Shown here piece after piece: positions 27,158 to 41,751 of a stretch of 64,000 nt of DNA; positions within the stretch are counted from its first letter, which is position 1, and each line of letters begins with the position of its first letter. The notes beneath the pieces were generated by a model. That model ran no database searches. It was not told the DNA's origin and worked only from the letters and a program-made list of their open reading frames with translations. The translations under genes and the position numbers were made by a program. The DNA is from Terriglobia bacterium (GTDB lineage: Bacteria; Acidobacteriota; Terriglobia; 20CM-2-55-15). The stretch is from positions 960,001 through 1,024,000 of the forward strand of contig CAXWPJ010000002.1 of the NCBI GenBank assembly GCA_963664115.2, in the 5' to 3' direction.

Positions 27158-29092
27158 CTACCGGGGTTGAGACACGACGTCCACCAGTGCAGTCTCACCA
27201 TTTTCGACGCGCTCCACTGCACGCCGCAAGGCCGGTCCAACTTCGCTTGGGTCGCTGATCGGTCCCTCCCCATAGAGTCCCATGCCTCGCGCCACCGTCG
27301 CGTAGTCGATGTCCGGATCGGAAATGTCGTTGCCGATCCCGGCCGTGTTAATGGCCCGCTGGCGCCAATTGGCCATGCGCTGCAGATGCATGACCTCCTG
27401 ATGATATGCCCGGTTGTTGTGCATCAGGAACAGCATCGGAATGCGGTGATGCACGGCGGTCCAGAGGGCTCCCGGCGCGCACATCAGGTCGCCGTCGGTC
27501 TGAAAGGCGACGCAAAAACGCCCGTATTTCCGGTGAGCGAGCGCGGCCCCAACGGCAATCGGCAGCCGTGCGCCTACGGCTGCAGCGCCGTTTGACCCGA
27601 CATTTTCTATCGTCTGGTGGTAATGCTCGAAATTCCACAAGGGGGGACTTCCGCCATTGACCAAAGCCCAGTCCTTGTTACGAACCACCTCCCATAACTC
27701 AGCCCACAATCGCGCAGTGCTGACTGGGCTGGCGTCCCAGCCGCTGGCCGCTTGGGTTCGCGCCCCGGCCAATGCCCTGTCCTTGGCCGCACTCAGTGTC
27801 TTTCCTCTCTCCTCAAATACCCGCCTCCGGTCACCGGTGATCAACCGTTTGCAGGCTTCAATCAACGATGGGAGAGTCGCCTCGGCGTCAGCAGCGATGG
27901 CAAGATCCACCTCCGCGTAGCGCTGGAAGTCCTGGTAGTTACTCTTAATGAACAGGTCATTTGAATCGATGCTGATCAGCTTGGTCCCAGGTTGCGTCCT
28001 TCGGCTGAAAGTCTTCTCCGGCAGATCACGCATATTGTGAACAGTGCCCCACAAATCTTCCACCTGCATGCCCAGGATCACGTCCGCCGCCCCGATTGCA
28101 CCACCTCCGCTCAGGGGATGGCGACTGGGCATATTGCGACTGTATCCCCGCACCGGCACCTGGAGCGTCTCTGCGAGTTCGACCATCAAATCCATTCCCT
28201 GCTGTGAGCGGGCCACATTTCCGCCGACGATCACGGGGTTTTCCGCCCCCACCAGCAACTGGGCCACCTCAGCCACTGCTCCCGGGTCACCGGCTGGCGG
28301 GCTTGTCCGTGTCAGCTTCGGAATATGTAAGCGGGATCGGTCCTCGATTGGAGCCTCCTGCAGGTGGCCATCCGCGACCAGTACTGTTGGCGCCGTCGGG
28401 ACCGTCATCCCAATCTTGTAAGCCCGTACCGCCGACTCGGCGAAATGTTGAAGCGAATGCGGCGTGTCATCCCACTTGATATAGTCGCGAACCATAGCTG
28501 TCGCATCCTGGACGCTGTGATTCCACTCCACGCCCGGTCGTCGGCCAGTGGCATCGAGGTGGTTTCCAAGAATGATGAACACAGGAGTGTGAGCGCAGAA
28601 GGCATGGTAGATGGTCATCGCCGCGTGCTGCAGACCGACCGTTCCGTGCGCTATGGCCAACATGGGCTTGCCTTCGACTCTGAAATACCCGTCGGCTATG
28701 GCAATCGAGGATTCCTCGTGGAGGCATGTCAACCACTCGGGAGCCTGGTTTCCCCCATAGTTGATGAATGACTCTTGCAGTCCACGGAAACTCGAGCCTG
28801 GCATCGAAGCGACATACTCAAAGCCCAGAGATTTGATGACATCCACCATGAAATCCGAACCGGGATCGTCGATCGTACGCAGAACATCGATTTGCTGAGA
28901 AACCGGTTCCGTTTCAGCCGCCAACTGTGCAGGTGATGGGGGTGGGGCCGCACCCCGCTGCAGCTGACCGGCCGGTTCAGCCTTTGCGTTCGGAGTCTCT
29001 ACAACCATGCCTGCTGCCCCAGCGGCAGCCCCAACGGCAGCGCCTTTCAGAAAGCCACGGCGATTAAGGGAGCCTTTTCTGGATTTCTCCAT
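27158..29092 (-). CDS. Thiamine-diphosphate-dependent enzyme with a twin-arginine signal
   Basis: NRRGFLK Tat motif, PGSSFRG, LHEESS (catalytic Glu), TDGDLM...HNN ThDP motif. Confidence 0.9.
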   Translation of the reverse strand: MEKSRKGSLNRRGFLKGAAVGAAAGAAGMVVETPNAKAEPAGQLQRGAAPPPSPAQLAAETEPVSQQIDVLRTIDDPGSDFMVDVIKSLGFEYVASMPGSSFRGLQESFINYGGNQAPEWLTCLHEESSIAIADGYFRVEGKPMLAIAHGTVGLQHAAMTIYHAFCAHTPVFIILGNHLDATGRRPGVEWNHSVQDATAMVRDYIKWDDTPHSLQHFAESAVRAYKIGMTVPTAPTVLVADGHLQEAPIEDRSRLHIPKLTRTSPPAGDPGAVAEVAQLLVGAENPVIVGGNVARSQQGMDLMVELAETLQVPVRGYSRNMPSRHPLSGGGAIGAADVILGMQVEDLWGTVHNMRDLPEKTFSRRTQPGTKLISIDSNDLFIKSNYQDFQRYAEVDLAIAADAEATLPSLIEACKRLITGDRRRVFEERGKTLSAAKDRALAGARTQAASGWDASPVSTARLWAELWEVVRNKDWALVNGGSPPLWNFEHYHQTIENVGSNGAAAVGARLPIAVGAALAHRKYGRFCVAFQTDGDLMCAPGALWTAVHHRIPMLFLMHNNRAYHQEVMHLQRMANWRQRAINTAGIGNDISDPDIDYATVARGMGLYGEGPISDPSEVGPALRRAVERVENGETALVDVVSQPR

Positions 29093-29664: not shown

Positions 29665-30255
29665 TCACTGTCTGTCCGCGGAGCGCCCGATCGTACCGTA
29701 GTAGCTGCTGGCACCCACGATGTGGCCATCGATGGCGTTCAGCACGTCCTCCCGGGTCGCATTCGCTGGGAGCGTCAGCATCTGGTCGAGCGCATACAGC
29801 TTGAATTGATAGTGGAGGGCGCCTACGCCCGGCGGCGCGCACGGCGCCCGGTATCCCACAATCCCGCGGCCTTCGACCTGGCGGCTGCCATCCGGCAGCT
29901 CGGCGCCAAGCGGCACATTCTGCGGGAGTTCGGTCGTGCCGGCCGGGATGTTCCAGCGTACCCAGAAGAATGCTTGAGTCAGACTTCCGCCTTGGTGATT
30001 GTCGGGCGCGACCACCATGAACGTGAAGCTTGCCGTGTCCTCCGGCGCGAAGTTCCACTGCAGCGGGGGCGAGACGGCATTGCCGCCTTCGGCGTAACAG
30101 GTGTACGCCAATGGCAGCGGACCGGCATCGCGGAAGGCAGTGCTTGTGAGCTTCAGCCTGGGCGGCCGCGCCTCCTCCCGTTGCGCAAGGGCGGCGCTGA
30201 CCATTCCCGTCAGCAGGAGCACTGCACCAAGCAGGCCCCCGATCACGATACGCAT
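29665..30255 (-). CDS. YbhB/YbcL (PEBP) family secreted protein
   Basis: Signal peptide, LTSTAF, SPPLQW, WNIPA, Y..PCAP, HYQFKLYALD. Confidence 0.88.
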   Translation of the reverse strand: MRIVIGGLLGAVLLLTGMVSAALAQREEARPPRLKLTSTAFRDAGPLPLAYTCYAEGGNAVSPPLQWNFAPEDTASFTFMVVAPDNHQGGSLTQAFFWVRWNIPAGTTELPQNVPLGAELPDGSRQVEGRGIVGYRAPCAPPGVGALHYQFKLYALDQMLTLPANATREDVLNAIDGHIVGASSYYGTIGRSADRQ

Positions 30256-30488
30256 GTCGCCTTTGACTCCTTCAGATCGAACTGCAGACTGAGGACCCGG
30301 ATTCATCAACCGCCATCCCGGTGCCGACCGGGCACCGCACATGGCATTCGCGACGACACGTAGGCCGCGACCGCGTACGCCCAGGCAGGGATGTCCGTCC
30401 GGGCCCGAAGTACGCCACCGACCGTCACCGTCGTGCAACCCGCAGCCACCAAAGCAATGAATATGCGCATCGTTCGAATCTCGTGAGG

Positions 30489-31466
30489 CTACTTCGCGCG
30501 GGTGCTCAGTCCCTGCGCAAGGGTCTGTATCTTGAATACCGCTCCGGCACCGACTATGTAGAGGGTCCTCCTGTCCGGACCGGCAAACGCGACGTTCTGG
30601 GGCTTTCTCAGGTTGAAGCTCTCGCCTCCCCAGACGGCCGGAATGACGCCCAGATGTTCTCCCTGCGGGCTGAACACTTCGACACCCACGTTCGTCGCCA
30701 CGTAGAGGCGCCCCGCGCTGTCGACCGCCAGACCGTCCGCCCCGTTGTCCTCCGCCAGCAACCGGTCCTGGTGTCCCGGCACGGTGACGCTCTGGTACTT
30801 CGCGAACTGACGCCGATTTGCCAGCGTGCCGTCCGGCGCCACGTCGAACGCCAGCAGATACTCGCCGTCCTTGTCGTTGGCGTAGAGCGTCTTCTCGTCC
30901 GGGCTCAGCAGCACACCATTCGGACTGGCAATGCGTTGCTCGACCCTGGTCACCTGGCCGCCATCCGGGGGCAGGTAGTAGATCCCCTCCTGGTCCGTGA
31001 AGTAGACGTCGCCGCGCGCACCCACCACGAGGTCATTGAGACGACTGAACGGCTTCCCCTCGAAACTGTCCGCCAGTACGGTTTCGCTGCCCGGCGGATA
31101 CAGCACGCCGACCTTCTCGTTCCCCGGCGGGCGCTGCACGGAAATCAGGCGGCCCTGCGGGTCGAACCCCACCGCATTCGCCGCGTTGGAGGGCTCGACG
31201 AAGGTGGATACGTTGCCGTCCCCGTCGATCCTCGTAATGCGGTCGGCGTCGGAGAAGAGGAGGCTCCCGTCCGGCATGCCCACAGGACCTTCGGTCCGCC
31301 GAAATCCGGCCTGGACCACTTCGATCGGCGTGCCGCCAGCAACCACGCCGGCGATGGCCGGCGCGACGAGTTCGGTCGGCGGTGGAATCTGCGGCCGGCC
31401 CTGCGGGTGGGCAGCAAGGCCGGACAGCAGGACGAGCGACGGTATCAGTGTTAGCTTCATATCCAA
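30489..31466 (-). CDS. SMP-30/gluconolactonase family propeller
   Basis: TEGPV, LNDLVV, PNGVLLSPD, ADGLAVD; signal peptide. Confidence 0.9.
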   Translation of the reverse strand: MDMKLTLIPSLVLLSGLAAHPQGRPQIPPPTELVAPAIAGVVAGGTPIEVVQAGFRRTEGPVGMPDGSLLFSDADRITRIDGDGNVSTFVEPSNAANAVGFDPQGRLISVQRPPGNEKVGVLYPPGSETVLADSFEGKPFSRLNDLVVGARGDVYFTDQEGIYYLPPDGGQVTRVEQRIASPNGVLLSPDEKTLYANDKDGEYLLAFDVAPDGTLANRRQFAKYQSVTVPGHQDRLLAEDNGADGLAVDSAGRLYVATNVGVEVFSPQGEHLGVIPAVWGGESFNLRKPQNVAFAGPDRRTLYIVGAGAVFKIQTLAQGLSTRAK

Positions 31467-31472
31467 CTCACC

Positions 31473-31718
31473 TCAGCGGTTTCGATTCATTTCCTGGTCG
31501 AACAGCTTCTGGAATTGCTCGGGGTTCGCGTCTTTTCTCTCGATGAAGAAGTACGCGTGCGGATTTTCCCAGTCGACATCGGTCAGCGTGCCGGTGAACT
31601 CGCCGCAGTTCGATGCGTCGAACTCGGCTGCAAACGAGTGATACGCCGATGCCGGCGCGGCCGCTAACAGGCAGGCGGCCATGACGAGCACACTCAGCAG
31701 ATGCAGGGGATGTCGCAT
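31473..31718 (-). pseudogene. Truncated DUF6152-like gene fused to an unrelated tail
   Basis: Signal peptide, then YHSFAAEFD...WENPH (paralog of 38986-39429), then an abrupt switch to NPEQFQKLFDQEMNRNR. Confidence 0.65.
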
Positions 31719-31964
31719 TACGGTTGCCCCGAAGAGAATGACTTTTTGTACCCCACTTCTTAGGGGGTTGTCCATAGCTAATCTGCTGAAAGGGAAGAAC
31801 GAAATTCCCGAGTTCGTTTTCCTCGGGCCGGGCGTTCTGCTGAAGGATGGAAGCCGTACGGAGGGCAAGCCCGTCGACATGAACAATAGGCATTAAGGCT
31901 AAGGAATCGACACGTCGGATCCATGCTCTGAATTGTCATGAAATGTTGCAATCCTGTGCGGCGC

Positions 31965-31993
31965 TAAAGACTGCAGCGGACACCTTCCGATAC
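31965..31993 (+). promoter_or_regulatory. Possible sigma28-type promoter of the flagellin
   Basis: TAAA-N17-TCCGATAC versus consensus TAAA-N15-GCCGATAA; the spacer is long. Confidence 0.4.
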
Positions 31994-32008
31994 CGAGAGT
32001 GCAACAAG

Positions 32009-32087
32009 AACACGGATGTTCGGACGGGGCTACAGAACCTGTTTGGATCAAGGAGGATCACACTTTAAACATTCTAAGGAGGATCCC
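32009..32087 (+). promoter_or_regulatory. CsrA/RsmA-type binding sites in the flagellin leader
   Basis: AACA-CGGA-TGTT hairpin (ACANGGANGU), further GGA motifs and two AAGGAGGATC copies, the second forming the RBS. Confidence 0.6.
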
Positions 32088-32916
32088 ATGAGCTTTTCAT
32101 GTAGTTACGAATCTTTCGTCAATTAACGCACAGGCCACTTTGGACAGCACCCAGATGGGTTTGCAGCGGACCCTGGCGCGACTGACGTCGGGGCTGCGTA
32201 TCAACAGTGCAGCTGACGCCGCCGCCGGCCTCGCCGTGGCCAACCGGCACAAGTTGGACAACACCGGTCTGACAATCGGTATCCGGAGTGCGAACGATGC
32301 CATCAGCAAGCTGCAGATCGAAGACGGCGCACTCAACAACATTTCTTCGTCGCTGGACCGGGCCCTGACTCTGGCCAGCCAGGCCGCATCGGACACCTTT
32401 ACCGGTTCCCGGTCCACGCTGGATTCCGAGTTCCAGTCGGTTCTTTCGGAAATCACCAGAAACGCTACAGCCGCGGGTATCGAGACCGGTAACGCGAACC
32501 TGAACGCACGGTCGGTTTTCGTGGGCAACACACAAACCAGCACTACGGCAACGGTCACCTACGTATCGTTCGCTCTGACCACTGCGGCCGACGCCACGGG
32601 TCTGGGAGTCAACGCGGAGAGCATTACCAGTCAGGCGAATGCTGCCACCGCCATCTCAACTATTCAGACCGCAATCGGCACTCTCGGTACGGTACAGGGT
32701 CGAGTGGGTGCGGCAATGAACCGATTGAGTTTCGCCATCTCTCAGGCGCAGACGATGTCGGTGAGTGTTCGGGCTTCGGAATCCCGAATCCGTGATGCCA
32801 ACATTGCGGAAGAAGCGGCATCGTTGACGAAGTTCAATATCCTGACCCAGAGCGGCTTAGCCGCGCTGTCTCAGGCAAACTCGTCGTCTCAGTCCGTCCT
32901 GCAATTGCTCCGTTAG
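32088..32916 (+). CDS. fliC: Flagellin (D0/D1 only, about 275 aa) with one extra base after codon 4
   Basis: RLTSGLRINSAAD, G..GAAMNRL, ESRIRDANIAEEA, ALSQAN...VLQLLR; removing one base near 32100 gives the N-terminus MSFSVVTNLSSINAQ. Confidence 0.88.
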
Positions 32917-33214
32917 AGTGTTGTGTCGAGTTGCAGGTGTTAGAACGGCGGACTTAAGACGAGCAACCGCGCCCGACACGCAGAATCGCACGGGCCCGAG
33001 CACACGAATCCCGCGTCGGCTTTTCATGAGAGGATTCACATCCGTCTTAAACAGCCGAGGCAAATGATCAAGATTGGACTGTATGCTACGTTTGCCCTAG
33101 TTGTGAGTGCGAACCGGCTTCATATTCTGTTGGCGCCTTTCGTGTAAAGGCCGGCAATTCTGTAAGGCCTGGGACGCATTTATGATCCGGGTCATATTTT
33201 CGGGAGAGTTTTGC

Positions 33215-34225
33215 ATGACGACGAATCAGATCGGGCGAATTGACGTACACAATCACGCTGTGACTCCCGCCTACCTCGGAGCGATCCAGTCAATAGGCGG
33301 GATCATACTCACACCGGAATGGTCCGTGGATCTGGCTCTTGAATATCTCGACAACTATTCGAAATCGTCCGCCATACTCTCGATTTCCATACCAGGGGTT
33401 CACCTGGGAGACGACCGGAAGGCGCGAGTCCTCGCGCGTCGAATCAACGAAGAATTCGCCTCTTACATCTCATCGCATCCTAAGCGATTCGGGGCGTTTG
33501 CGGCCATCCCCCTGCCCGACGTGGAAGGAGCATGCCTCGAGGCAGAATATGCACTCGATACCTTGAAGCTGGACGGGGTTGGATTTTTCGCCAGCTACGA
33601 TGGCCGGTACCCGGGCTCGCCCGAATTCGATCCGATCCTGGACCTGTTGCTGAACCAGCGTTCAGCGGTAGTCTTCATCCACCCGACCAATCACCCTTCC
33701 ACAAAAATGATTCGCGAGGGTATCAGTTCCGGTATCGGCAACTTTCTCGTGGAGTTCCTGTTCGATACCACCCGCGCGGCACTGAACCTCCTTTTCTTCG
33801 ACGTCCTGGAACGGTTCCCAAACATCCGTTTCATCTTGTCCCACGGAGGCGGTACATTGCCTTATGTCGCCTGGCGTGTGGCGCACATCGCAGCCAGGAT
33901 GATGACCGAGGCCCCGTGGGATACTCAGTACCCGTCACCTTTCATGACTCGGCACGGGCAGTCGCTGACGCCTGAAATCGTTCTTACTGAGCTACGTCGA
34001 TTCTGGTACGACACGGCCATGTCTGCCGGCCGTCAAAGTTTGGGGGCCCTTAAAGAAGTCGCTGCTCCGGAGCGGATTTTGTTTGGTAGCGATTGGCCCT
34101 ATTGCCCCGAAGTCGCGACTAAGGACATGTTGGAAGCTCGCTATGACAGTCAAATGTTTAGCGACAGCGAGCAAGCGGCGATAGATCGCGGCAACGCCTT
34201 GCGTTTGTTTCCGCGATTTGCCTGA
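33215..34225 (+). CDS. Amidohydrolase_2 family (ACMSD/aromatic-acid decarboxylase-like)
   Basis: IDVHNH, FIHP, FDTTRA, SHGGGTLP, LFGSDWP. Confidence 0.88.
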   Translation: MTTNQIGRIDVHNHAVTPAYLGAIQSIGGIILTPEWSVDLALEYLDNYSKSSAILSISIPGVHLGDDRKARVLARRINEEFASYISSHPKRFGAFAAIPLPDVEGACLEAEYALDTLKLDGVGFFASYDGRYPGSPEFDPILDLLLNQRSAVVFIHPTNHPSTKMIREGISSGIGNFLVEFLFDTTRAALNLLFFDVLERFPNIRFILSHGGGTLPYVAWRVAHIAARMMTEAPWDTQYPSPFMTRHGQSLTPEIVLTELRRFWYDTAMSAGRQSLGALKEVAAPERILFGSDWPYCPEVATKDMLEARYDSQMFSDSEQAAIDRGNALRLFPRFA

Positions 34226-34426
34226 GCAGTGTCATGGAACTTTCTGTCACCTCCACTAAAGGAGAGTCCAAGTCCCACTCGCCACCCACGGACAGTGATA
34301 TTCATGTGGTGCACGGAAACCCCGGTCGAGTGTCCCCGCTTTCATTTACCTGCTTTGAAGTCCCCTCCGGGTTCGATGCGGACCCGTTCGTGAATGCTGT
34401 CTCGGCTCAGGAAGTGCGTGCGTGGC

Positions 34427-35575
34427 CTACCGGGCCACGTACTTCGTGATGCCACCGCCGGCGACCGGACGCGATCCAGGACCTTCTGCGGCGTAGATGT
34501 TGCCGTCGGCGTCGACCGCCACGCCTTCGCCGGCCACGCCCTGCAACACGCGTGTGTCGTGGGCGTGTGGCGGCACGAACGCCGTCACGCGGTCCTCGCC
34601 CGCGGGACCGATCCGCACCCCGGTGCGCCATCCCGGATGGCGCTGGGCGTCGGATTCCGAATCGATCGCGTAGAGCGTGTCGTCGTCCGTGATGAACAGC
34701 CCGCTGACCCGGCTGAACTCCAGGTACGTGTCGAGCAGGTCGCCGTCCTGGCTGAAGATTTGAATCCGATGATTGCCGCGGTCGGCCACATACAGTCGAC
34801 CTTGCGAGTCGAACTCCAGCGCGTGCGGCGTGCGGAACTGGCCTGGCCTGAAACCGAGCTCGCCCCACGCCGTAATGAAGTTGCCCTCCCTGTCAAATTT
34901 CAGGATGCGCCCCGTGGAGCCCGGAGGCGGATCCGGACTCTGGCCGCTGTGTCCGTCGGCGACGAAGATGTCACCGTTCGGCGCGGTGATCACGTCGCAC
35001 GGCTCGTTAAGCTGACCCGGACCGCTGCCCGGTTGTCCCGCCGTCCCCAGGCGCAAGAGCACCTCGCCGTCCGGGCTGAACTTGATGACCTGATGCCCCT
35101 TCGTCCCGGCCTCGTTGCCTTGGGAGTCGGTAACCCAGACGTTGCCCTCCGCATCGACGTGGAGCCCATGCGGGAGCACGAACAGCCCTGCGCCAAAGCT
35201 CGTCAACATCTCGCCGGTGTCCTTGTTGACCTTGAAGATCGGATCCCGATCGGGATTCTCCTCGCAACCGCCTGCCAGCGCCAGCCCGCCGCAGCGGTCG
35301 TAGGTCCAGATATGCCCATCGGGACCGATGTCGATGCCGGCCGTCGATCCCCACTCCCGACCCTCCGGAAGCGGTGCCCAGTTCAGCATCACTTCACCCG
35401 TGGGGTTCGGTAGCTGCCGGTCGACGAAGTCACTCGAGGTCGCGGTCGACTCGGATCCTATCCCTATCTCCGGCTCAGACGGCGGATTAGGGGCGCACGC
35501 GGCCAGCATCATGGACGCCGTGGCCAGGAGCGCCACGCCGCATCGGGTGAGGAACAACCATCGCATGTCACTCAT
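34427..35575 (-). CDS. NHL-repeat lipoprotein, peptidyl-alpha-hydroxyglycine amidating lyase (PAL)-like
   Basis: Lipobox LAAC, LPHGLHVD, IFVADGH, TPHAL, VADRGNHRIQIF. Confidence 0.85.
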   Translation of the reverse strand: MSDMRWLFLTRCGVALLATASMMLAACAPNPPSEPEIGIGSESTATSSDFVDRQLPNPTGEVMLNWAPLPEGREWGSTAGIDIGPDGHIWTYDRCGGLALAGGCEENPDRDPIFKVNKDTGEMLTSFGAGLFVLPHGLHVDAEGNVWVTDSQGNEAGTKGHQVIKFSPDGEVLLRLGTAGQPGSGPGQLNEPCDVITAPNGDIFVADGHSGQSPDPPPGSTGRILKFDREGNFITAWGELGFRPGQFRTPHALEFDSQGRLYVADRGNHRIQIFSQDGDLLDTYLEFSRVSGLFITDDDTLYAIDSESDAQRHPGWRTGVRIGPAGEDRVTAFVPPHAHDTRVLQGVAGEGVAVDADGNIYAAEGPGSRPVAGGGITKYVAR

Positions 35576-35706
35576 TTTTCTTCTCCTTCAAGTCTCGAGT
35601 CCGGCCGGACCCGGTGCACGGCGGACCGATGGGCCCGCCAGCCTTCCCTAACATCAAATCCTGAGAATTCCCGTTCGTTTCTGATTTCAATCCGCCCCCG
35701 ATTGGA

Positions 35707-37779
35707 TCAGCGCAACGCCATCGCCGCCAGACCGTTTTCGAGCTGGACGATGACGTACTGTCTTCCTTCGTGGACCCAACTCGACATGCCGTACCGAGAA
35801 ACGTCCGGTATCTCCACAGCCCCGACACGCTCCCCGGTCTGCTTGTCGATCGCGAACAAGTGCGGTGTGCCATCGCTGGTCTGGCCTGAAGCAAGGAGTA
35901 GCGTAGGCGTTGTCAACATCGCGGCCTGACCGAGGCGGCCGGGGTTCGTCGGAACATCCTCGATCCCCTGGAGCAATGGGTGATTCCGAATCAGCTCCTG
36001 TTGCTCTCGAGGCGCATCCCCGTGAGGAATCACCCAGAGATGCTCACCTGTATTCATATCGATCGCCGTGATCCGCCCGACCGGCCCCCTCCAGATTGAG
36101 AGGCCATCCAGGGTCTCCGTTCTGGGCGGGGCTTCCACGTCGATCGCTCGCGAATAGTCGGAGTGGGTAGTCCCCGTCTGCGCGGGTCCGTCCAATGGGG
36201 AGTCCGACGCCGGTGCGAGATGGATCGTGGAGCATGCGCTTTGGGAGTTGATAAAGATCACGCCCGCCACCGGATCTGCGACAGGCGGTCCGGTAATGTT
36301 CGCGCCGCCGCCCCCGCCCGGACACGCCCGGGCCGGCACTACCAGTTCCAAGTCGCCGACATAGGTCGGCGGGTCGAACAGCGGGACGAACAGGTTGTTC
36401 TCGAGCGCCACTTCCATCGCCCTGCGTTTGATCTCGGGCGTATAGTCAATGAGCTGTTCCTCGGTTCTCCCCTGGATGTCGAACGGCGCCGGTTTGGTCG
36501 GGAACGGTTGTGTACGAGAGAGCTGCTCACCGGGCACCCGGGATTGAGGTACCGGCAGTTCCTCGATGGGCCAGATCGGCTCACCGGTCTCCCGGTTGAA
36601 AGCGTAGACGAATGACTGCTTGGTGACCTGGAAGACGCCGGGGATCACACCGCCGTCGACCGCCACGTCCATCAGTATCGGCGCCGTCGGGGTGTCGTAG
36701 TTCCAGATGTCGTGGTGGACCAGCTGGAAATGCCAGGCCCGGTTACCGGTCTCGACGTCGAGGGCGATCAGGCTCGTGCCAAATAAGTTATCTCCGGGAT
36801 GGAACCCGCCATAGTAATCGATGGTGGGGCCATTCGTCGGAACGTAGACCAATCCGAGCTCCGGATCGGCCGACAGCGGCGCCCAGGAAGAGACATCGCC
36901 CGTCCACTGCCAGGCATCGTTCTCCCACGTCTCGTGTCCCAACTCACCCGGTCGCGGAATGACGTGGAACTTCCACTTGAACTGGCCGGTCCGCGCATCG
37001 AAGGCGAGGATGTCGCCGGGAACGTTCTCGATGCGGGTCTGGTTATACCCCTGCTCCGCGGAGTTCCCCACGATGACGGTGCCGTTCACAACGATGGGCG
37101 GGGAAGACGCCGTGATGTAGCCCAGCTCTAGAGGGATACCGTAGTAAGGATCGTACTCTTCGCCGTGCTCCAGCCACCGGTCCCAATCCGCGATGAGGGG
37201 TGGCAGCAGATCCACGACGCCCGTCTCCGGGAAGCCCGCCAGCGGTATCCTCGTGCCCCAGTTCTCGAGGTGCAGGCCGGTCTCGGCATCGATGGCGTGG
37301 AGGAAAAACGCGGGTGTCGCAAGAAATACGACGCCGCGGCCGTCGACCTCACCGTACGCGATTCCCTTTCCGTAACCCTTTCGCATGGAGTACTCGTAGC
37401 GCGCGGTCATCGGCTCAGAATAACTCCAGAGAAGCTCTCCCGTCTCGGGATCAAGAGCCACGACATGCCGGCGCTCGCCGGTGACCGTGATCAACTTACC
37501 GTCGACGTAGGTGGGCGTTGACCGCGGGGTGCTTGAGCCGAAACTCGCCGCGGTCCACTCCCAGACGACCTCCAGGTTCTCGAAGTTGGTGGCATCGATT
37601 TCACTCGCCTGGGTGTAGCGGGTGTGCCAGGCGTCCCCGCCGATGTAGGACCACTGCCCGTTCTCGACTCCCGGTCCCTGGGACAAGACCGCCGCAGGCG
37701 CAATAACCAGCACGCCGAGTGCCGGGATGAGCCACTTGCAGGTCACCGACCGCTGCCACCGTTTGTCCTTAATTTTCAT
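35707..37779 (-). CDS. PQQ-binding beta-propeller, quinoprotein glucose/quinate dehydrogenase-like
   Basis: Signal peptide, DPELGLVYVP, NLFGTSLIALD, WHFQLVHHDIWNYD, QPFPTKP, GRQYVIV. Confidence 0.88.
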   Translation of the reverse strand: MKIKDKRWQRSVTCKWLIPALGVLVIAPAAVLSQGPGVENGQWSYIGGDAWHTRYTQASEIDATNFENLEVVWEWTAASFGSSTPRSTPTYVDGKLITVTGERRHVVALDPETGELLWSYSEPMTARYEYSMRKGYGKGIAYGEVDGRGVVFLATPAFFLHAIDAETGLHLENWGTRIPLAGFPETGVVDLLPPLIADWDRWLEHGEEYDPYYGIPLELGYITASSPPIVVNGTVIVGNSAEQGYNQTRIENVPGDILAFDARTGQFKWKFHVIPRPGELGHETWENDAWQWTGDVSSWAPLSADPELGLVYVPTNGPTIDYYGGFHPGDNLFGTSLIALDVETGNRAWHFQLVHHDIWNYDTPTAPILMDVAVDGGVIPGVFQVTKQSFVYAFNRETGEPIWPIEELPVPQSRVPGEQLSRTQPFPTKPAPFDIQGRTEEQLIDYTPEIKRRAMEVALENNLFVPLFDPPTYVGDLELVVPARACPGGGGGANITGPPVADPVAGVIFINSQSACSTIHLAPASDSPLDGPAQTGTTHSDYSRAIDVEAPPRTETLDGLSIWRGPVGRITAIDMNTGEHLWVIPHGDAPREQQELIRNHPLLQGIEDVPTNPGRLGQAAMLTTPTLLLASGQTSDGTPHLFAIDKQTGERVGAVEIPDVSRYGMSSWVHEGRQYVIVQLENGLAAMALR

Positions 37780-38216
37780 GTAAATCCCCCAAGGGTCGAC
37801 CCGCCTCTTTCTCGAGTTGGGCGGGGGTGACCCGGACTGGCCCGAAATGATTTCAGAATTCTCCCGCTATTCTACTCAAATAGGCTTCCGGGCCGAGAAC
37901 AGAAAAATGAGTATTTCCATGGAGCCAATGGAGCCAACGATCGCGCAGTGCGGAACCCCAGCAGGTGCGACCTATAGCGGAGTTCCATCTTAGGTCTATT
38001 GGTTGCACACGCGTTTCTACCCGATGCGGAAGCGGAATCTCAGGTCCCGCCCAATTCCCAACGACCGCGCGAGGGGGCCGCGGTTCATTCCGCCGCTCGG
38101 TCGAAGAAATGGCTGACATGACGGAGCCCCGGCTGTATCCTAATCTCGGAGCCAACGAGGCGCGGCGCCCAGCTTGTGTGTGTCGGGGAGAGACTACCGG
38201 AATAGGGAGAGGATCG

Positions 38217-38954
38217 ATGAGGTCTGCAAACGCAAATCCTTTGCGGCGTCGAGTGTTTGAGGCGGCCGCTGTCGGTGCCCTCATGTTCGTGGGGACCGGG
38301 CCGTTCGCAGCTAACGCTCAGGCTCCGAGTGCCTCTTCTGAGGTCCCCGATCTGTCCGGGATCTGGAAGCGGGCAGAACGGCGTGAGGTGCTGACTCCCT
38401 TGCGGTTGAACGCGAGGGCGGAGGCCTTGAGAGGCGTGTTGGATGAACGTGCCTATCCCAAGTACGACTGCGTGGCAGCGACGATGCCCCGTATCGTGAC
38501 CGACTCCTACAACTTTCAGATCCAACAGCAGGCTGACCGGGTGCTGTTGATGTTCGAGAAGGACGACGTTGTTCGAACGGTCTGGTTGGAAGGGTATGGC
38601 CATCCGGCGCCGAGTGTGGGCGAGTACTTTCTTCAGGGTTACTCGATTGGCCGGTACGAAGGCGCAGAGCTCGTCGTCGAGACGACCAAGTTTACCTACG
38701 ACCCGCATGGATTCAGCGACGGGTCCCCCACGATTGCGTCCTCGCAGCGGAAGACAGTGAGTGAGCGATACTGGCTCGACGAGGGTCGTCTTCGCGTCGA
38801 GGTCGTCACCGAAGATCCCCTCATGATCCTGGAGCCGAATCGATTCCGTTACGCTTGGGATCGGACAGACGAGGAATGGCTGGAGTTTGCGTGCGATATC
38901 GAGAACTCGCACACGGTGCTGCCCTTCCTGACCCCGCAATACGGCGTGCCATAG
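38217..38954 (+). CDS. Exported hypothetical protein with two Cys, paired with DUF6152
   Basis: Signal peptide, PDLSGIW, DC....PR, GYSIGRYEG.ELVVET, ERY, EDP, EFAC; start MRSAN after GGAGAGG. Confidence 0.75.
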   Translation: MRSANANPLRRRVFEAAAVGALMFVGTGPFAANAQAPSASSEVPDLSGIWKRAERREVLTPLRLNARAEALRGVLDERAYPKYDCVAATMPRIVTDSYNFQIQQQADRVLLMFEKDDVVRTVWLEGYGHPAPSVGEYFLQGYSIGRYEGAELVVETTKFTYDPHGFSDGSPTIASSQRKTVSERYWLDEGRLRVEVVTEDPLMILEPNRFRYAWDRTDEEWLEFACDIENSHTVLPFLTPQYGVP

Positions 38955-38985
38955 CCGAGGGTCCCTTTGGTGGAGCGTAAGGCGG

Positions 38986-39429
38986 ATGAGGGAGATGATG
39001 AAATCGAGTATAGCGACGTTCCTGGTAGGTGCTCTTGCGGCTGTCGGACTGCTGTTGCCGATCGATCGCGCCGATGCCCATCATTCTGCCGCGGTGTTCT
39101 TCGATCGGGATCAAATTGTGGAGATTCGTGGAGTCGTCACCCGGTGGTCGTTCTTGAACCCGCATCCGATCCTGATGGTCGAGGTGACGGACCCGGACTC
39201 TGAGAAGGTCGAATGGCTGATGCAGTTCACGAACGTGCTCAACATGAGGAGACTCGGGATCACGGACGCGACCTTCGCCACGGGCATGGAGGTGACTGTC
39301 GCTGGACCGAGAGCACTCGCGGAAGAAATATATGCGCTGAATCCCGAGCTGGTGGTGCTCCCTGATGGCACAGAAATTGTCGCAGCGCCAGGGCAGGGAG
39401 GCGAAAGGCGGGTGACGCGCCCGAACTGA
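38986..39429 (+). CDS. DUF6152-like exported protein
   Basis: Signal peptide ending ADA, then HHS..VFFD, G.VT.W.F.NPH, W; start may be ATG 38995 or 38998. Confidence 0.8.
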   Translation: MREMMKSSIATFLVGALAAVGLLLPIDRADAHHSAAVFFDRDQIVEIRGVVTRWSFLNPHPILMVEVTDPDSEKVEWLMQFTNVLNMRRLGITDATFATGMEVTVAGPRALAEEIYALNPELVVLPDGTEIVAAPGQGGERRVTRPN

Positions 39430-39452
39430 ATCGGGCGGGCGCCGCAACCCGG

Positions 39453-39495
39453 CTCTCAAGTCCTGACAATCCTTTTGCCGGGGGTTGAGAATTGG
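39453..39495. repeat. Bulged palindrome, copy 2
   Basis: CTCTCAA GTCC T GACAA tcctt TTGCC GGGG G TTGAGAATTGG. Confidence 0.65.
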
Positions 39496-39644
39496 CCTAC
39501 AGCCAGGCGTTGACCTACTGATTGCTTACAAACCCCTCCCTTAGTTAGTATTCTTTACCAACTTTTTCAGGGTTCAATCAGCAACACACTAAAGCGACGG
39601 AATCTGGCACCTAACCACGGATACTTAACAATACGGAGAAAACA

Positions 39645-40283
39645 ATGAGACTTTTTCTTGCACTATCGATTATCGCAACTCTCTCTTGCTCATTGACCCT
39701 CGAGGCTCAGGACACACGGATGAGTTTTTTCGTCACAAGCGAGGGATCGGGTAACGGGGCCGACCTCGGCGGACTGGCCGGCGCAGACGCCCACTGCCAG
39801 GCACTCGCCGCGGCTGCCGGCGCAGGCAACCGGACCTGGCGCGCTTATTTGAGCACCGAAGCCGAAGGAGGCCGCGGTGAGAGCGCCCGCCAGCGTATTG
39901 GCAATGGCCCCTGGTACAACGCGCACGGCGTGCTCATTGCAGCCGATGCTGACGACCTGCACTTGTACAACCGCACCATCACAAAGGCCACTGCGGTCGA
40001 CCAAAACGGCGATCAAATCAATGGCGTTGGCGACACCCCGAATCAGCACGACCTTCTGACGGGCTCGATGGGAGACGGCATGGCGTTCTTCCCGGACGCC
40101 GACGACCACACGTGCAACAACTGGACGAGTAGCGGCGACGGCAGCGCGATGCTCGGGCACACGGACCGCTTCGGCGGGGGCAATGCCTCGTGGAACGCAG
40201 CGCACCAATCGGCTGGTTGCAGTCAGGCTCAGCTGCAGGCCACCGGCGGCGGCGGCCTGTTTCTTTGCTTCGCCACGGACTGA
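39645..40283 (+). CDS. Secreted endostatin/C-type-lectin-fold protein
   Basis: FFVTS, LGGLAGADAHCQ, WRAYLS, GPWYN, HD.LTG, TCNNWTS, C...FLCFA. Confidence 0.82.
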   Translation: MRLFLALSIIATLSCSLTLEAQDTRMSFFVTSEGSGNGADLGGLAGADAHCQALAAAAGAGNRTWRAYLSTEAEGGRGESARQRIGNGPWYNAHGVLIAADADDLHLYNRTITKATAVDQNGDQINGVGDTPNQHDLLTGSMGDGMAFFPDADDHTCNNWTSSGDGSAMLGHTDRFGGGNASWNAAHQSAGCSQAQLQATGGGGLFLCFATD

Positions 40284-40600: not shown

Positions 40601-41751
40601 GTGGTCCCCGTTAAACAGACTGTAACTTATCAAGATTTCGCCGGCCGCGCTGGACTTTAGCAAGGATGTCGGAAGCCGTTGCAGTCCAGATGAAGGGTTT
40701 CGGGTCTTCATTGTGACGAGCGAGGTAGTCCTCCACGGCCTGGATCAACTCGGGGACCGAGCGGAAAACGCCACGCCGGAGTCGTTGCTCGGACAGATCC
40801 CGGAAAAAGCGCTCGACCATGTTGAGCCACGACGCACTGGTTGGCGTGAAGTGCACATGAAAACGCTTGTTACGCTTGAGCCAGTTGACGACTTTCTGAT
40901 GTTTGTGAGTCGCATAGTTGTCGCAAATAATGTGGATCTCCTTATCTTTCGGCATGGCGCGTTTGATCTGATTCAGAAACCGGATCCATTCCTGATGGCG
41001 ATGCTTTGGCATGCAGGTTCCGATGACCGAACCGTCCAGGATGTTGAGCGCGGCGAAAAGCGTGGTTGTCCCGTTACGTTTGTAATCGTGGGTCATGGTG
41101 CCACACCGCCCCTTCTTCAGAGGTAACCCGGGTTGCGTGCGGTCCAGGGCCTGCATCTGGCTCTTCTCATCGCAGGACAAGACAATGGCGTTTTCCGGTG
41201 GGCTCAGATACAGACCGACCACATCCTCCAGCTTTTCGGCGAATCGTTTGTCGTTGGATAGTTTGAAGGTTCGTGACAGATGAGGCTTCAGTCCATGGAC
41301 CCGCCAGATTTTCCCGACCGTGGACTCGCTCACGCCAACGGCCTTCGCCATCGAGGCCCGACTCCAGTGCGTCGCGTTCGGGGGCTTCTCTTCCAGTGTC
41401 TTCTTGACGATCCGGGCTCGCTTCCGGCGACTGATCGTGGGAATCCGTCCGCTTCGCGGCGCATCCTTTTCGATCCCAGCCAAGCCCTGTTCCACAAAAC
41501 GATTGCGCCAGCGGCCCGCTTTCTGGCGCGTGATCTCCAAGCGGGCGGCGATCTCATAATTGTTCCGACCTTCAGCGGCCAGTAATACAATTCGGGATCG
41601 TTCCGCCAACCGGACCGATGTACTCCGGCTTCGACTCAGTCGCTCCAACTCCATCCGCTGCTTGTCATCCAATTCAATGGTCGGTGCTTTCCTCATTCTC
41701 TATTGGACGTTGGAAAGCTATTTTAGTTACATTACTTCGAGCGGGGTACAC
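40601..41751 (-). mobile_element. IS630-family element
   Basis: Ends GTGGTCCCCG / CGGGGTACAC; duplicated TA within CTAG at 40598-40601 and 41751-41754. Confidence 0.92.
40611..41696 (-). CDS. IS630-family transposase
   Basis: N-terminal HTH, DEKSQ, THDYKRNGT, DNYATHK, PTSASWLNMVERFF. Confidence 0.95.
   Translation of the reverse strand: MRKAPTIELDDKQRMELERLSRSRSTSVRLAERSRIVLLAAEGRNNYEIAARLEITRQKAGRWRNRFVEQGLAGIEKDAPRSGRIPTISRRKRARIVKKTLEEKPPNATHWSRASMAKAVGVSESTVGKIWRVHGLKPHLSRTFKLSNDKRFAEKLEDVVGLYLSPPENAIVLSCDEKSQMQALDRTQPGLPLKKGRCGTMTHDYKRNGTTTLFAALNILDGSVIGTCMPKHRHQEWIRFLNQIKRAMPKDKEIHIICDNYATHKHQKVVNWLKRNKRFHVHFTPTSASWLNMVERFFRDLSEQRLRRGVFRSVPELIQAVEDYLARHNEDPKPFIWTATASDILAKVQRGRRNLDKLQSV

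Follow-up and report, generated by a model that had tools for sequence, protein, structure and literature searches.

A secreted two-protein module built on DUF6152, present in more than 100 copies in a Terriglobia genome, is predicted to enclose a metal site and is likely an enzyme

We analyzed a 64,000-nucleotide stretch of a Terriglobia bacterium genome (GCA_963664115.2, contig CAXWPJ010000002.1, positions 960,001 to 1,024,000), referred to here as the window (G000:C2:960001-1024000, where G000 is the source genome, 4.89 Mb and 97% complete). Two adjacent genes in the window, A and B, encode an exported two-cysteine protein without a family name and a DUF6152 protein. They belong to an unstudied secreted two-protein module that occurs in more than 100 copies in this genome and is likely an enzyme; its two members are predicted to associate in a complex that has a metal site between them. 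Our best single reading, held at somewhat less than even confidence, is that A and B are a family of periplasmic heterodimeric redox metalloenzymes. B scores 60.8 bits against the DUF6152 profile (PF19649; gathering cut-off 27), in agreement with the first-pass annotation of this DNA; this Pfam family has no assigned function. A has no match in Pfam or NCBIfam. The positions of the features are collected in Table 1.

Iterated hidden Markov model searches of all six frames, run to convergence, found 126 B domains and 146 A domains in G000, the latter in 144 open reading frames (ORFs). A and B are the two largest clusters among the 4091 genes called in this genome, and their ORFs together (about 262) are roughly 6% of its crudely called genes. 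Few of the copies are duplicates: 115 of 123 full-length B and 131 of 141 full-length A are non-redundant at 90% identity, with a median pairwise identity of 30% for B and 26% for A. A co-oriented A lies within 700 bp of 95 of the 126 B (64 in the order B-A and 31 in the order A-B), eight ORFs are B-A fusions, and 27 B stand alone. The trees of the two families are correlated (Mantel rho 0.53, reached by 0 of 2000 permutations; dereplication left 61 of 66 one-to-one pairs). The window's own pair has an orthologue in three of four congeners (G001, G002, and G004), in which A is about 85% identical, and the ratio of nonsynonymous to synonymous substitution rates (dN/dS) is 0.08-0.12 for A and 0.17-0.27 for B. 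The A-B pair is real, under purifying selection, massively expanded, and uncharacterized.

Some A/B units are near-identical on different contigs of G000. Transposase-like families are very abundant in the genome (clusters of 79, 54, and 34 genes), with an example in the window at 40611-41696. Insertion sequence activity could drive A/B shuffling, or some copies may be assembly repeats. Tandem forms were also seen, namely B-B proteins in which the second domain lacks the HH start and an A-A protein (P0155, P0251, P0271, and G000:C2:333464-335074). The tandem A-A protein and the frequent A-A-B runs hint at an A2B stoichiometry.

The expansion is shared by many close relatives. DUF6152 was searched for in 18 relatives of the same family, where 12 genomes had from 45 to at least 112 matches, two had one to three, one had a match below the cut-off, and three had none. 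One of 12 genomes of other class members had a single match, and in an even phylum draw DUF6152 was present in 8 of 100 genomes, as a single copy in six and as 11-16 copies in two. Four family genomes lacking a cut-off B match were searched for A, without a positive control, and gave none. A single-sequence DUF6152 search returned 1383 representatives at 50% clustering, and A was also present in 19 of the best 150. For gene neighborhoods we used 80 GTDB loci (L025-L104), one motif-picked subfamily found with a four-row core-subfamily alignment. The core-subfamily loci with a named source come mostly from Acidobacteriota and some from Gemmatimonadota and Pseudomonadota. A lies within 5 kb in 77 of the 80.

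The most constant part of B is its predicted mature start. Judging signal cleavage by the A-x-A rule, the window's B reads ADA-HHS...NPH, and 123 of 124 intact-start B domains begin with HH, the exception being the truncated remnant T described below. Ala precedes the start in 113 of these, and Ala, Gly, or Ser in 123. Across full-length paralogues, His1, His2, and His29 are each present in 123 of 123, Pro28 in 121, and Asn27 in 108. In 101 B homologues from outside G000, the only invariant columns are His1, His2, Pro28, and His29. Exposure of His1, which the first-pass annotation had predicted, is thus borne out as far as sequence can tell, as is its expectation that the His and Cys residues would be conserved among homologues. 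The window's A contains exactly two Cys, as that annotation had said; the motifs needed correction, since the first reads DC-x5-PR and the second, EFAC, is 19 residues before the C-terminus and not terminal. Cys85 is retained in 138 of 141 A paralogues, Cys226 in 136, and both in 134. In the numbering of the structural model, Arg79 (136), Gly100 (141), Glu142 (136), and Asp159 (140) are also nearly constant among the 141. Export of A by the twin-arginine translocation (Tat) pathway through its RRVF motif was considered but found no support, because close homologues do not always retain the twin Arg.

The A model (AlphaFold2; predicted local distance difference test, pLDDT, 92) resembles the barrels of cellular retinol-binding and fatty-acid-binding proteins (CRBP and FABP), with a Foldseek TMq of about 0.4 and a VIA Z of 10.4 to 6at8 (CRBP-IV; root-mean-square deviation, rmsd, 2.7 over 107 aligned residues). 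Nitrobindin is matched at VIA Z 8.6. Identity to the top-listed structures is 16% or less, and it is nowhere above 19%. With these calycins, which also include the lipocalins and phycobiliprotein lyases, A shares a predicted antiparallel barrel and an N-terminal GxW motif (DLSGIW). What sets it apart from them is a long lid, two paired Cys, and a C-terminal tail, elements expected from the prediction to dock a metal subunit with an OB fold, a kind of partner not seen among the matches. B was modeled at pLDDT 88 and matches oligonucleotide/oligosaccharide-binding (OB) folds at up to Z 9.0 (rmsd 2.9, 82 aligned), in agreement with Foldseek. In contrast, CopC, lytic polysaccharide monooxygenases (LPMOs), and YcnI are beta-sandwiches, a comparison that reaches only as far as the families listed by the structure search. 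Searches of PDB sequences with A, B, and the DUF6644 and family C proteins introduced below gave nothing under E 0.5.

Complex prediction supports binding between the two proteins without demonstrating it. A and B with Zn reached an ipSAE of 0.67 (0.67/0.74/0.67), compared to 0.00 for the best of three controls; an A-B interface, as the first-pass annotation required, is thus predicted. The runs agreed in at least 92% of contacts, with a partner pLDDT of at least 86. Among calibration cases, 116 of 157 solved complexes and 2 of 215 mismatches passed the same threshold, a rough guide here given that we used our own alignments and included Zn. The predicted interface covers residues 1-3, 5-7, 24-31, 47-57, and 79-86 of B and 36-58, 73, 127-129, and 181-198 of A in model numbering. 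All three His and both Cys fall within it, the NPH motif makes the lowest-error contacts, and Cys85 of A (Cys44 in the model) touches Pro28 of B. Where A is predicted to touch residues 26-28 of B, many core-subfamily A proteins have C-H-E-G right after a Cys (42 regular-expression matches in L025-L104). The window's A has CDIE at this position. C-H-E-G is a possible extra ligand from A in that subfamily.

Two kinds of companion recur around the module. Tandem genes for DUF6644 membrane proteins lie within 1 kb of an A/B domain in 12 of 20 cases in G000 and within 3 kb in 17. In a proximity test of 3839 crudely called non-A/B genes, for which the background within 3 kb of an A/B domain was 15.5%, DUF6644 and an unnamed family C stood far above the other families. 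Of the 15 relatives whose DUF6152 match reached the cut-off, 14 also have DUF6644, compared to 0 of 15 others; these genomes are kin and not independent. A DUF6644 pair is within 5 kb in 28 of the 80 GTDB loci. Low-copy genomes give the simplest arrangement: A-A-B stands beside a convergent DUF6644 gene or pair in G018, G032, G079, and G091, and G025 has a cytochrome-A-A-A-B run with a DUF6644 pair 7 kb away. No DUF6644 was present in the DNA examined from G119 (a contig end) and G008. The first DUF6644 helix carries an invariant His (His33), and the family has weak matches to DUF2214 (4 of 11 members) and CopD (1 of 11, E 0.003). The pair is possibly a heme b or metal membrane heterodimer.

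The second kind is cytochromes. Of the 80 loci, 14 contain a class II-type CxxCH cytochrome, 10 of these together with DUF6644, and 19 contain a c-type cytochrome of any kind. The class II type also stands beside DUF6644 in G018, G069, G079, and G091. In G000, 22 of 80 CxxCH proteins are within 3 kb of A/B, against the background of 15.5%. TonB-dependent receptors occur in 7 of the 80 loci. Tandem DUF6644 pairs, often after a cytochrome c'-like CxxCH protein, can be seen at L008:4278-5314, L017:9953-10989, L129:8002-9556, L130:5770-7777, and L132:4477-6186. A separate c-type cytochrome, similar to NF033196 and PufC below both cut-offs, is fused to a DUF6544-like region (L011:721-1773 and L018:5151-6413); four of its five G000 copies are within 3 kb of A/B, and it heads the A-A-A-B run of G025. 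Another exported protein without a Pfam match (L010:1859-2608, family 63 in G000) has five of six members within 1 kb of A/B.

Family C is exported and replaces A beside a distinct subtype of B. All 13 of its G000 genes are within 1 kb of A/B, and the members scanned have no Pfam or NCBIfam match. The B of C-containing runs is of the HHSH type in 9 of 13 cases, compared to 2 of 96 in runs with A. In four other genera, a co-oriented B accompanies family C at 12 of 16 loci; these B represent 11 distinct genes, of which 10 are HHSH. A profile comparison of C with A gave a probability of 0.2%, that is, the two are unrelated. Since HHSH-type B pairs with this unrelated family in place of A, B gives the impression of a metal subunit that can be combined with different partners. 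The fourth His of this type could add a metal ligand. Examples of family C are at L007:610-2640, L014:974-2073, L012:3211-4143, and, in relatives, L134-L149.

We favor a redox metalloenzyme because an invariant His triad lies at the predicted interface with a barrel of ligand-binding type, and because the sequence diversity goes beyond the need of one metal and the conserved core includes cytochromes and a His-bearing membrane pair. The two secreted proteins would meet as a periplasmic heterodimer, an assembly in which we have high confidence. B would hold a transition metal, most likely copper, on its OB fold, with His1 (by its free amino group and its side chain), His2, and His29 as ligands. 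That a metal sits at this triad seems to us very probable; whether such a metal is copper we regard as evenly balanced. The calycin barrel of A would close over the site with a disulfide-pinned lid and its C-terminal tail and would select a small-molecule substrate. Electrons may then pass through c-type cytochromes and the DUF6644 membrane pair, and the diverged copies, more than 100 in number, would make up a repertoire directed at a wide range of organic compounds. Taken separately, catalysis is slightly favored, and redox chemistry falls a little short of an even chance. A broader proposal is doubtful: an undescribed superfamily of two-subunit periplasmic copper redox enzymes, in which a constant OB-fold subunit with His1, His2, and His29 would serve interchangeable substrate-binding partners (A or family C), be wired to the membrane through DUF6644 and class II cytochromes, and, expanded to about 6% of the genes, let uncultured bacteria attack many different dissolved organic molecules, much like a P450 repertoire built on an N-terminal-histidine site.

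Several observations weigh against a redox enzyme or weaken its support. Convergence of the three His was deduced from their joint presence in the interface list and not from coordinates or Zn contacts, and specificity-determining positions are not enriched at the interface (p 0.30 for A and 0.67 for B). Joint duplication by itself would make the trees of A and B correlate, and 52 of 146 A have no co-oriented B within 700 bp. Electron partners are few for about 130 modules: G000 has 21 DUF6644 domains and five class II cytochromes, none of the latter within 3 kb of A/B, and the window's pair has neither beside it. The 80 loci are mutually related and not independent. The weak resemblance of DUF6644 to CopD fits uptake as well as electron transfer. 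Finally, the small N-terminal-His proteins characterized in the accessible parts of PMC12537917 and PMC10952591 are metal carriers, not enzymes.

Metal scavenging or uptake is the strongest alternative, and we consider it improbable. B would be a catcher like CopC, YcnI, or the anglerases, A would shield or ferry the metal, and the DUF6644 pair would be a CopD-like importer. Such an arrangement has precedents, as N-terminal-His proteins coupled to membrane permeases are known carriers in the sections available of PMC12537917 and PMC10952591, and it resembles the CopC/CopD and YcnI/YcnJ modules in joining a periplasmic His1 protein to a membrane protein with a conserved His. The DUF2214 and CopD matches, the tight co-occurrence of DUF6644 with B, and the TonB-dependent receptors are all consistent with uptake. 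G000 also has no CopC match (controls matched in 4 of 14), so B could fill that role. In contrast to those modules, DUF6644 comes in tandem pairs, often convergent and with class II cytochromes beside them, the partner is a large barrel, and modules outnumber membrane pairs by about 10 to 1. One metal would not require at least 115 distinct B and at least 131 distinct A at 26-30% identity, A is predicted to lie over the His site, and cytochromes recur in the loci.

The known carriers also bear on which metal is bound. The histidine-brace copper proteins (LPMOs, CopC, PmoF1, YcnI, and X325; PMC10952591 in its accessible part, which treats the last four as carriers) resemble B in being secreted, in a predicted N-terminal His, and in an invariant distal His. 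By the sequence signs of a histidine brace alone, B has both His1 after predicted cleavage and a conserved distal His29. B differs in its additional invariant His2, in a His face predicted to be covered by a second protein, and in its more than 100 copies; searched against profiles including CopC (PF04234), it matched only DUF6152 at E up to 0.05. DUF4198, DUF6702, and the anglerases (Ang-1, Ang-2) are likewise N-terminal-His secreted bacterial metal binders, some of them membrane-coupled. As far as the available text of PMC12537917 goes, they are beta-sandwiches with His1 conserved in 65-79%, compared to HH in 123 of 124 for B, and have no calycin partner described. Because the facial (DUF4198) and tri-His (DUF6702) variants there prefer Ni over Cu, the metal of B cannot be assumed. 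CopC (2 of 20 genomes) and HupE/UreJ_2 (20 of 20) point to no metal, since neither tracks the expansion.

Less probable again is a non-catalytic binding repertoire, in which each A barrel would bind its own small molecule, with the B metal site as a clamp, and pass it on to a transporter or a hydrolase of the periplasm. Very large sets of paralogues are a common mark of binding repertoires. The nearest folds of A are ligand-binding calycins, and exported hydrolases and metallo-beta-lactamase (MBL)-fold proteins are enriched among the neighbors, but permease families of the ABC and TRAP types show no enrichment next to A/B in G000, and the linkage to cytochromes and DUF6644 would go unexplained. 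That linkage is equally unaccounted for if the module is a non-redox hydrolase or lyase, to which we give a similarly low standing. Here a Zn, Mn, Co, or Ni ion bound by His1, His2, and His29, mostly with Glu49, would activate water or a substrate, and the two Cys would have a structural role only. Glu49 is present in 98 of 123 B and within the interface, Arg79 and Glu142 of A would face the hydrophobic inside of the barrel by strand parity, and neighbors include amidohydrolases, MBL-fold proteins, and lactonases; the window's own B, however, has Gln at position 49.

The first-pass annotation had placed the pair within a 10-kb island of exported propellers, as a metal or pyrroloquinoline quinone (PQQ) carrier or subunit dedicated to the PQQ, NHL, and SMP-30 proteins around it. 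All the genes it named exist. The island itself is a chance assembly and not a real system. In the 20 kb examined around the orthologous pair in G001, G002, and G004, none of the window's PQQ, NHL, SGL, PEBP, or endostatin-like genes is present as an orthologue; at about 5 kb from the pair, G002 carries another PQQ paralogue. In those congeners, separate sites hold the PEBP-SGL-T block, the NHL-PQQ block, the flagellin gene, and the amidohydrolase gene, so the island was rejected as a conserved unit. The PQQ gene is beside the NHL gene in two congeners and not beside the A-B pair, and the conserved linkage expected of a quinoprotein accessory is absent, the pair being unlinked from the window's PQQ gene in three of three.

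The earlier claim that the association appears twice, through T, also failed. T reads ASA-YHS...NPH, scores 37.3 bits for DUF6152, and spans residues 5-53 of a profile of 98. Among its homologues, the one in G004 no longer has His29, that in G002 contains a premature stop, and that in G001 is frameshifted. Over some 80 codons, the dN/dS of T was estimated at 0.45 and 0.89, noisy values for so short a gene, compared to 0.09-0.12 for the PQQ gene and 0.19-0.43, at low dS, for SGL. We therefore rejected T as a functional second copy. Its truncation is reproduced without differences by a contig over 31021-32280 from a DNA-type run, possibly the window's own source.

Proximity to these genes reflects a broader tendency of the module to lie where genes for exported enzymes abound. 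In G000, NHL (14 of 28), endostatin-like (8 of 12), and PQQ genes (5 of 11) are enriched at up to 3 kb from A/B, as are thiamine pyrophosphate (TPP) enzymes (6 of 9), amidohydrolases (9 of 18), and MBL-fold genes (16 of 42); SGL (3 of 10) is not. Exported neighbors are the rule around all A/B copies, because signal peptides, called by a crude hydrophobicity rule, are present in 114 of 288 genes within 1 kb and 395 of 2492 beyond 10 kb. Among the 80 loci, NHL is found in 4, SGL in 2, PEBP and endostatin-like in 0, and PQQ-type propellers in 14. A loose PQQ link survives, because of these 14 loci and of a PQQ-type propeller beside three of the low-copy loci examined. Thus, of the predicted enrichment, PQQ holds loosely and NHL within G000, while SGL and, in the 80 loci, NHL do not. 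A PqqC-family gene (PF03070) is below cut-off in G000 and absent from four congeners (controls matched in 6 of 14), and TIGR02111 had no match in a search where control genomes also gave none; PQQ could come from outside the cell. G000 has about 11-12 PQQ-type propellers, and the window's also matches TIGR04528, 'acido-empty-quinoprotein', below cut-off.

A helper dedicated to the propellers is therefore very improbable and largely refuted: the G000 proximities, the 14 loci, and a B remnant long established upstream of an SGL gene speak for it, but the island is dispersed, TPP enzymes and amidohydrolases are equally enriched, every one of the four PQQ genes that come within 1 kb of A/B has the opposite strand, T decays while SGL is intact, about 130 modules face 11 PQQ genes, and no PqqC gene passes the cut-off. 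What remains of the first-pass annotation's periplasmic metal or redox system is the metal or redox role, as the best reading, without the island; its account also lacked the 100-plus copies and the DUF6644 and cytochrome companions.

Table 1. Positions of the A-B pair, its key residues, and surrounding genes in the window
Feature	Position	Strand	Remarks
Gene A, exported two-Cys protein without family name, predicted calycin (FABP/nitrobindin-like) barrel	38217..38954	+	245 aa
Gene B, DUF6152, predicted OB fold	38986..39429	+	Candidate starts 38986, 38995, 38998; signal peptide ends ADA
Cys85 of A (Cys44 in model numbering)	38469..38471	+	Predicted interface; likely disulfide partner of Cys226
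Cys226 of A (Cys185 in model numbering), in EFAC	38892..38894	+	Predicted interface, facing Asn27-Pro28 of B
His1-His2 of predicted mature B, predicted metal ligands	39079..39084	+	Invariance and interface list
Asn27-Pro28-His29 (NPH) of B; His29 is the third invariant His	39157..39165	+	Conservation and complex model
T, truncated DUF6152 remnant (YHS...NPH), decaying pseudogene upstream of SGL gene	31473..31718	-	
PEBP gene, context only, outside module	29665..30255	-	Pfam cut-off passed
SGL/SMP-30 gene, context only, outside module	30489..31466	-	Pfam cut-off passed
NHL lipoprotein gene, context only, outside module	34427..35575	-	Pfam cut-off passed; lipobox LAAC
PQQ-type propeller gene, context only, outside module	35707..37779	-	Pfam cut-off passed
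Endostatin-like exported protein gene, context, 3' of B	39645..40283	+	Sub-cut-off only: DUF1554 E 0.002, LenA/B E 0.002
Flagellin gene, interrupts island	32140..32916	+	
Amidohydrolase gene, interrupts island	33107..34225	+	

The PQQ-type gene is divergent from the A-B pair with 437 bp between them, and an IS630-type transposase gene follows the island. The flagellin is a short orphan of 258 aa with only the N- and C-terminal helical regions, one of six family members in G000; several similar copies occur in congeners. A TPP-dependent enzyme at 27158-29092 has a Tat-like N-terminal signal and a Pfam match just below the cut-off; exported TPP enzymes are unusual. A promoter and terminator scan was uninformative (7 versus 2.9 ± 1.8 and 12 versus 9.0 ± 3.4, respectively). 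Three metatranscriptome runs contain short, mostly identical contigs on parts of A (X1, X2, and X3) and B (X2); the shares are small and may be DNA carry-over, and they were not counted as evidence.

Literature searches for DUF6152 and DUF6644 found no paper, in sources that did not cover subscription literature or supplements. In the ESM Atlas, the clusters returned for A all lacked a name and those for B were DUF6152, and a cluster look-up gave only 'hypothetical protein'. The histidine-brace architectures described in the accessible parts of PMC12537917 and PMC10952591 do not include the design predicted here, in which a separate calycin subunit closes over an N-terminal-His metal site carried by an OB fold.

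The module accounts for about 6% of the genes of G000, with similar numbers in 12 of 18 family relatives. It consists of two small soluble proteins and is therefore directly testable. If A and B are carriers, they would be an unusually large metal-binding expansion. If they are catalytic, they would be a large new enzyme class and a candidate route for the processing of organic matter by abundant uncultured bacteria.

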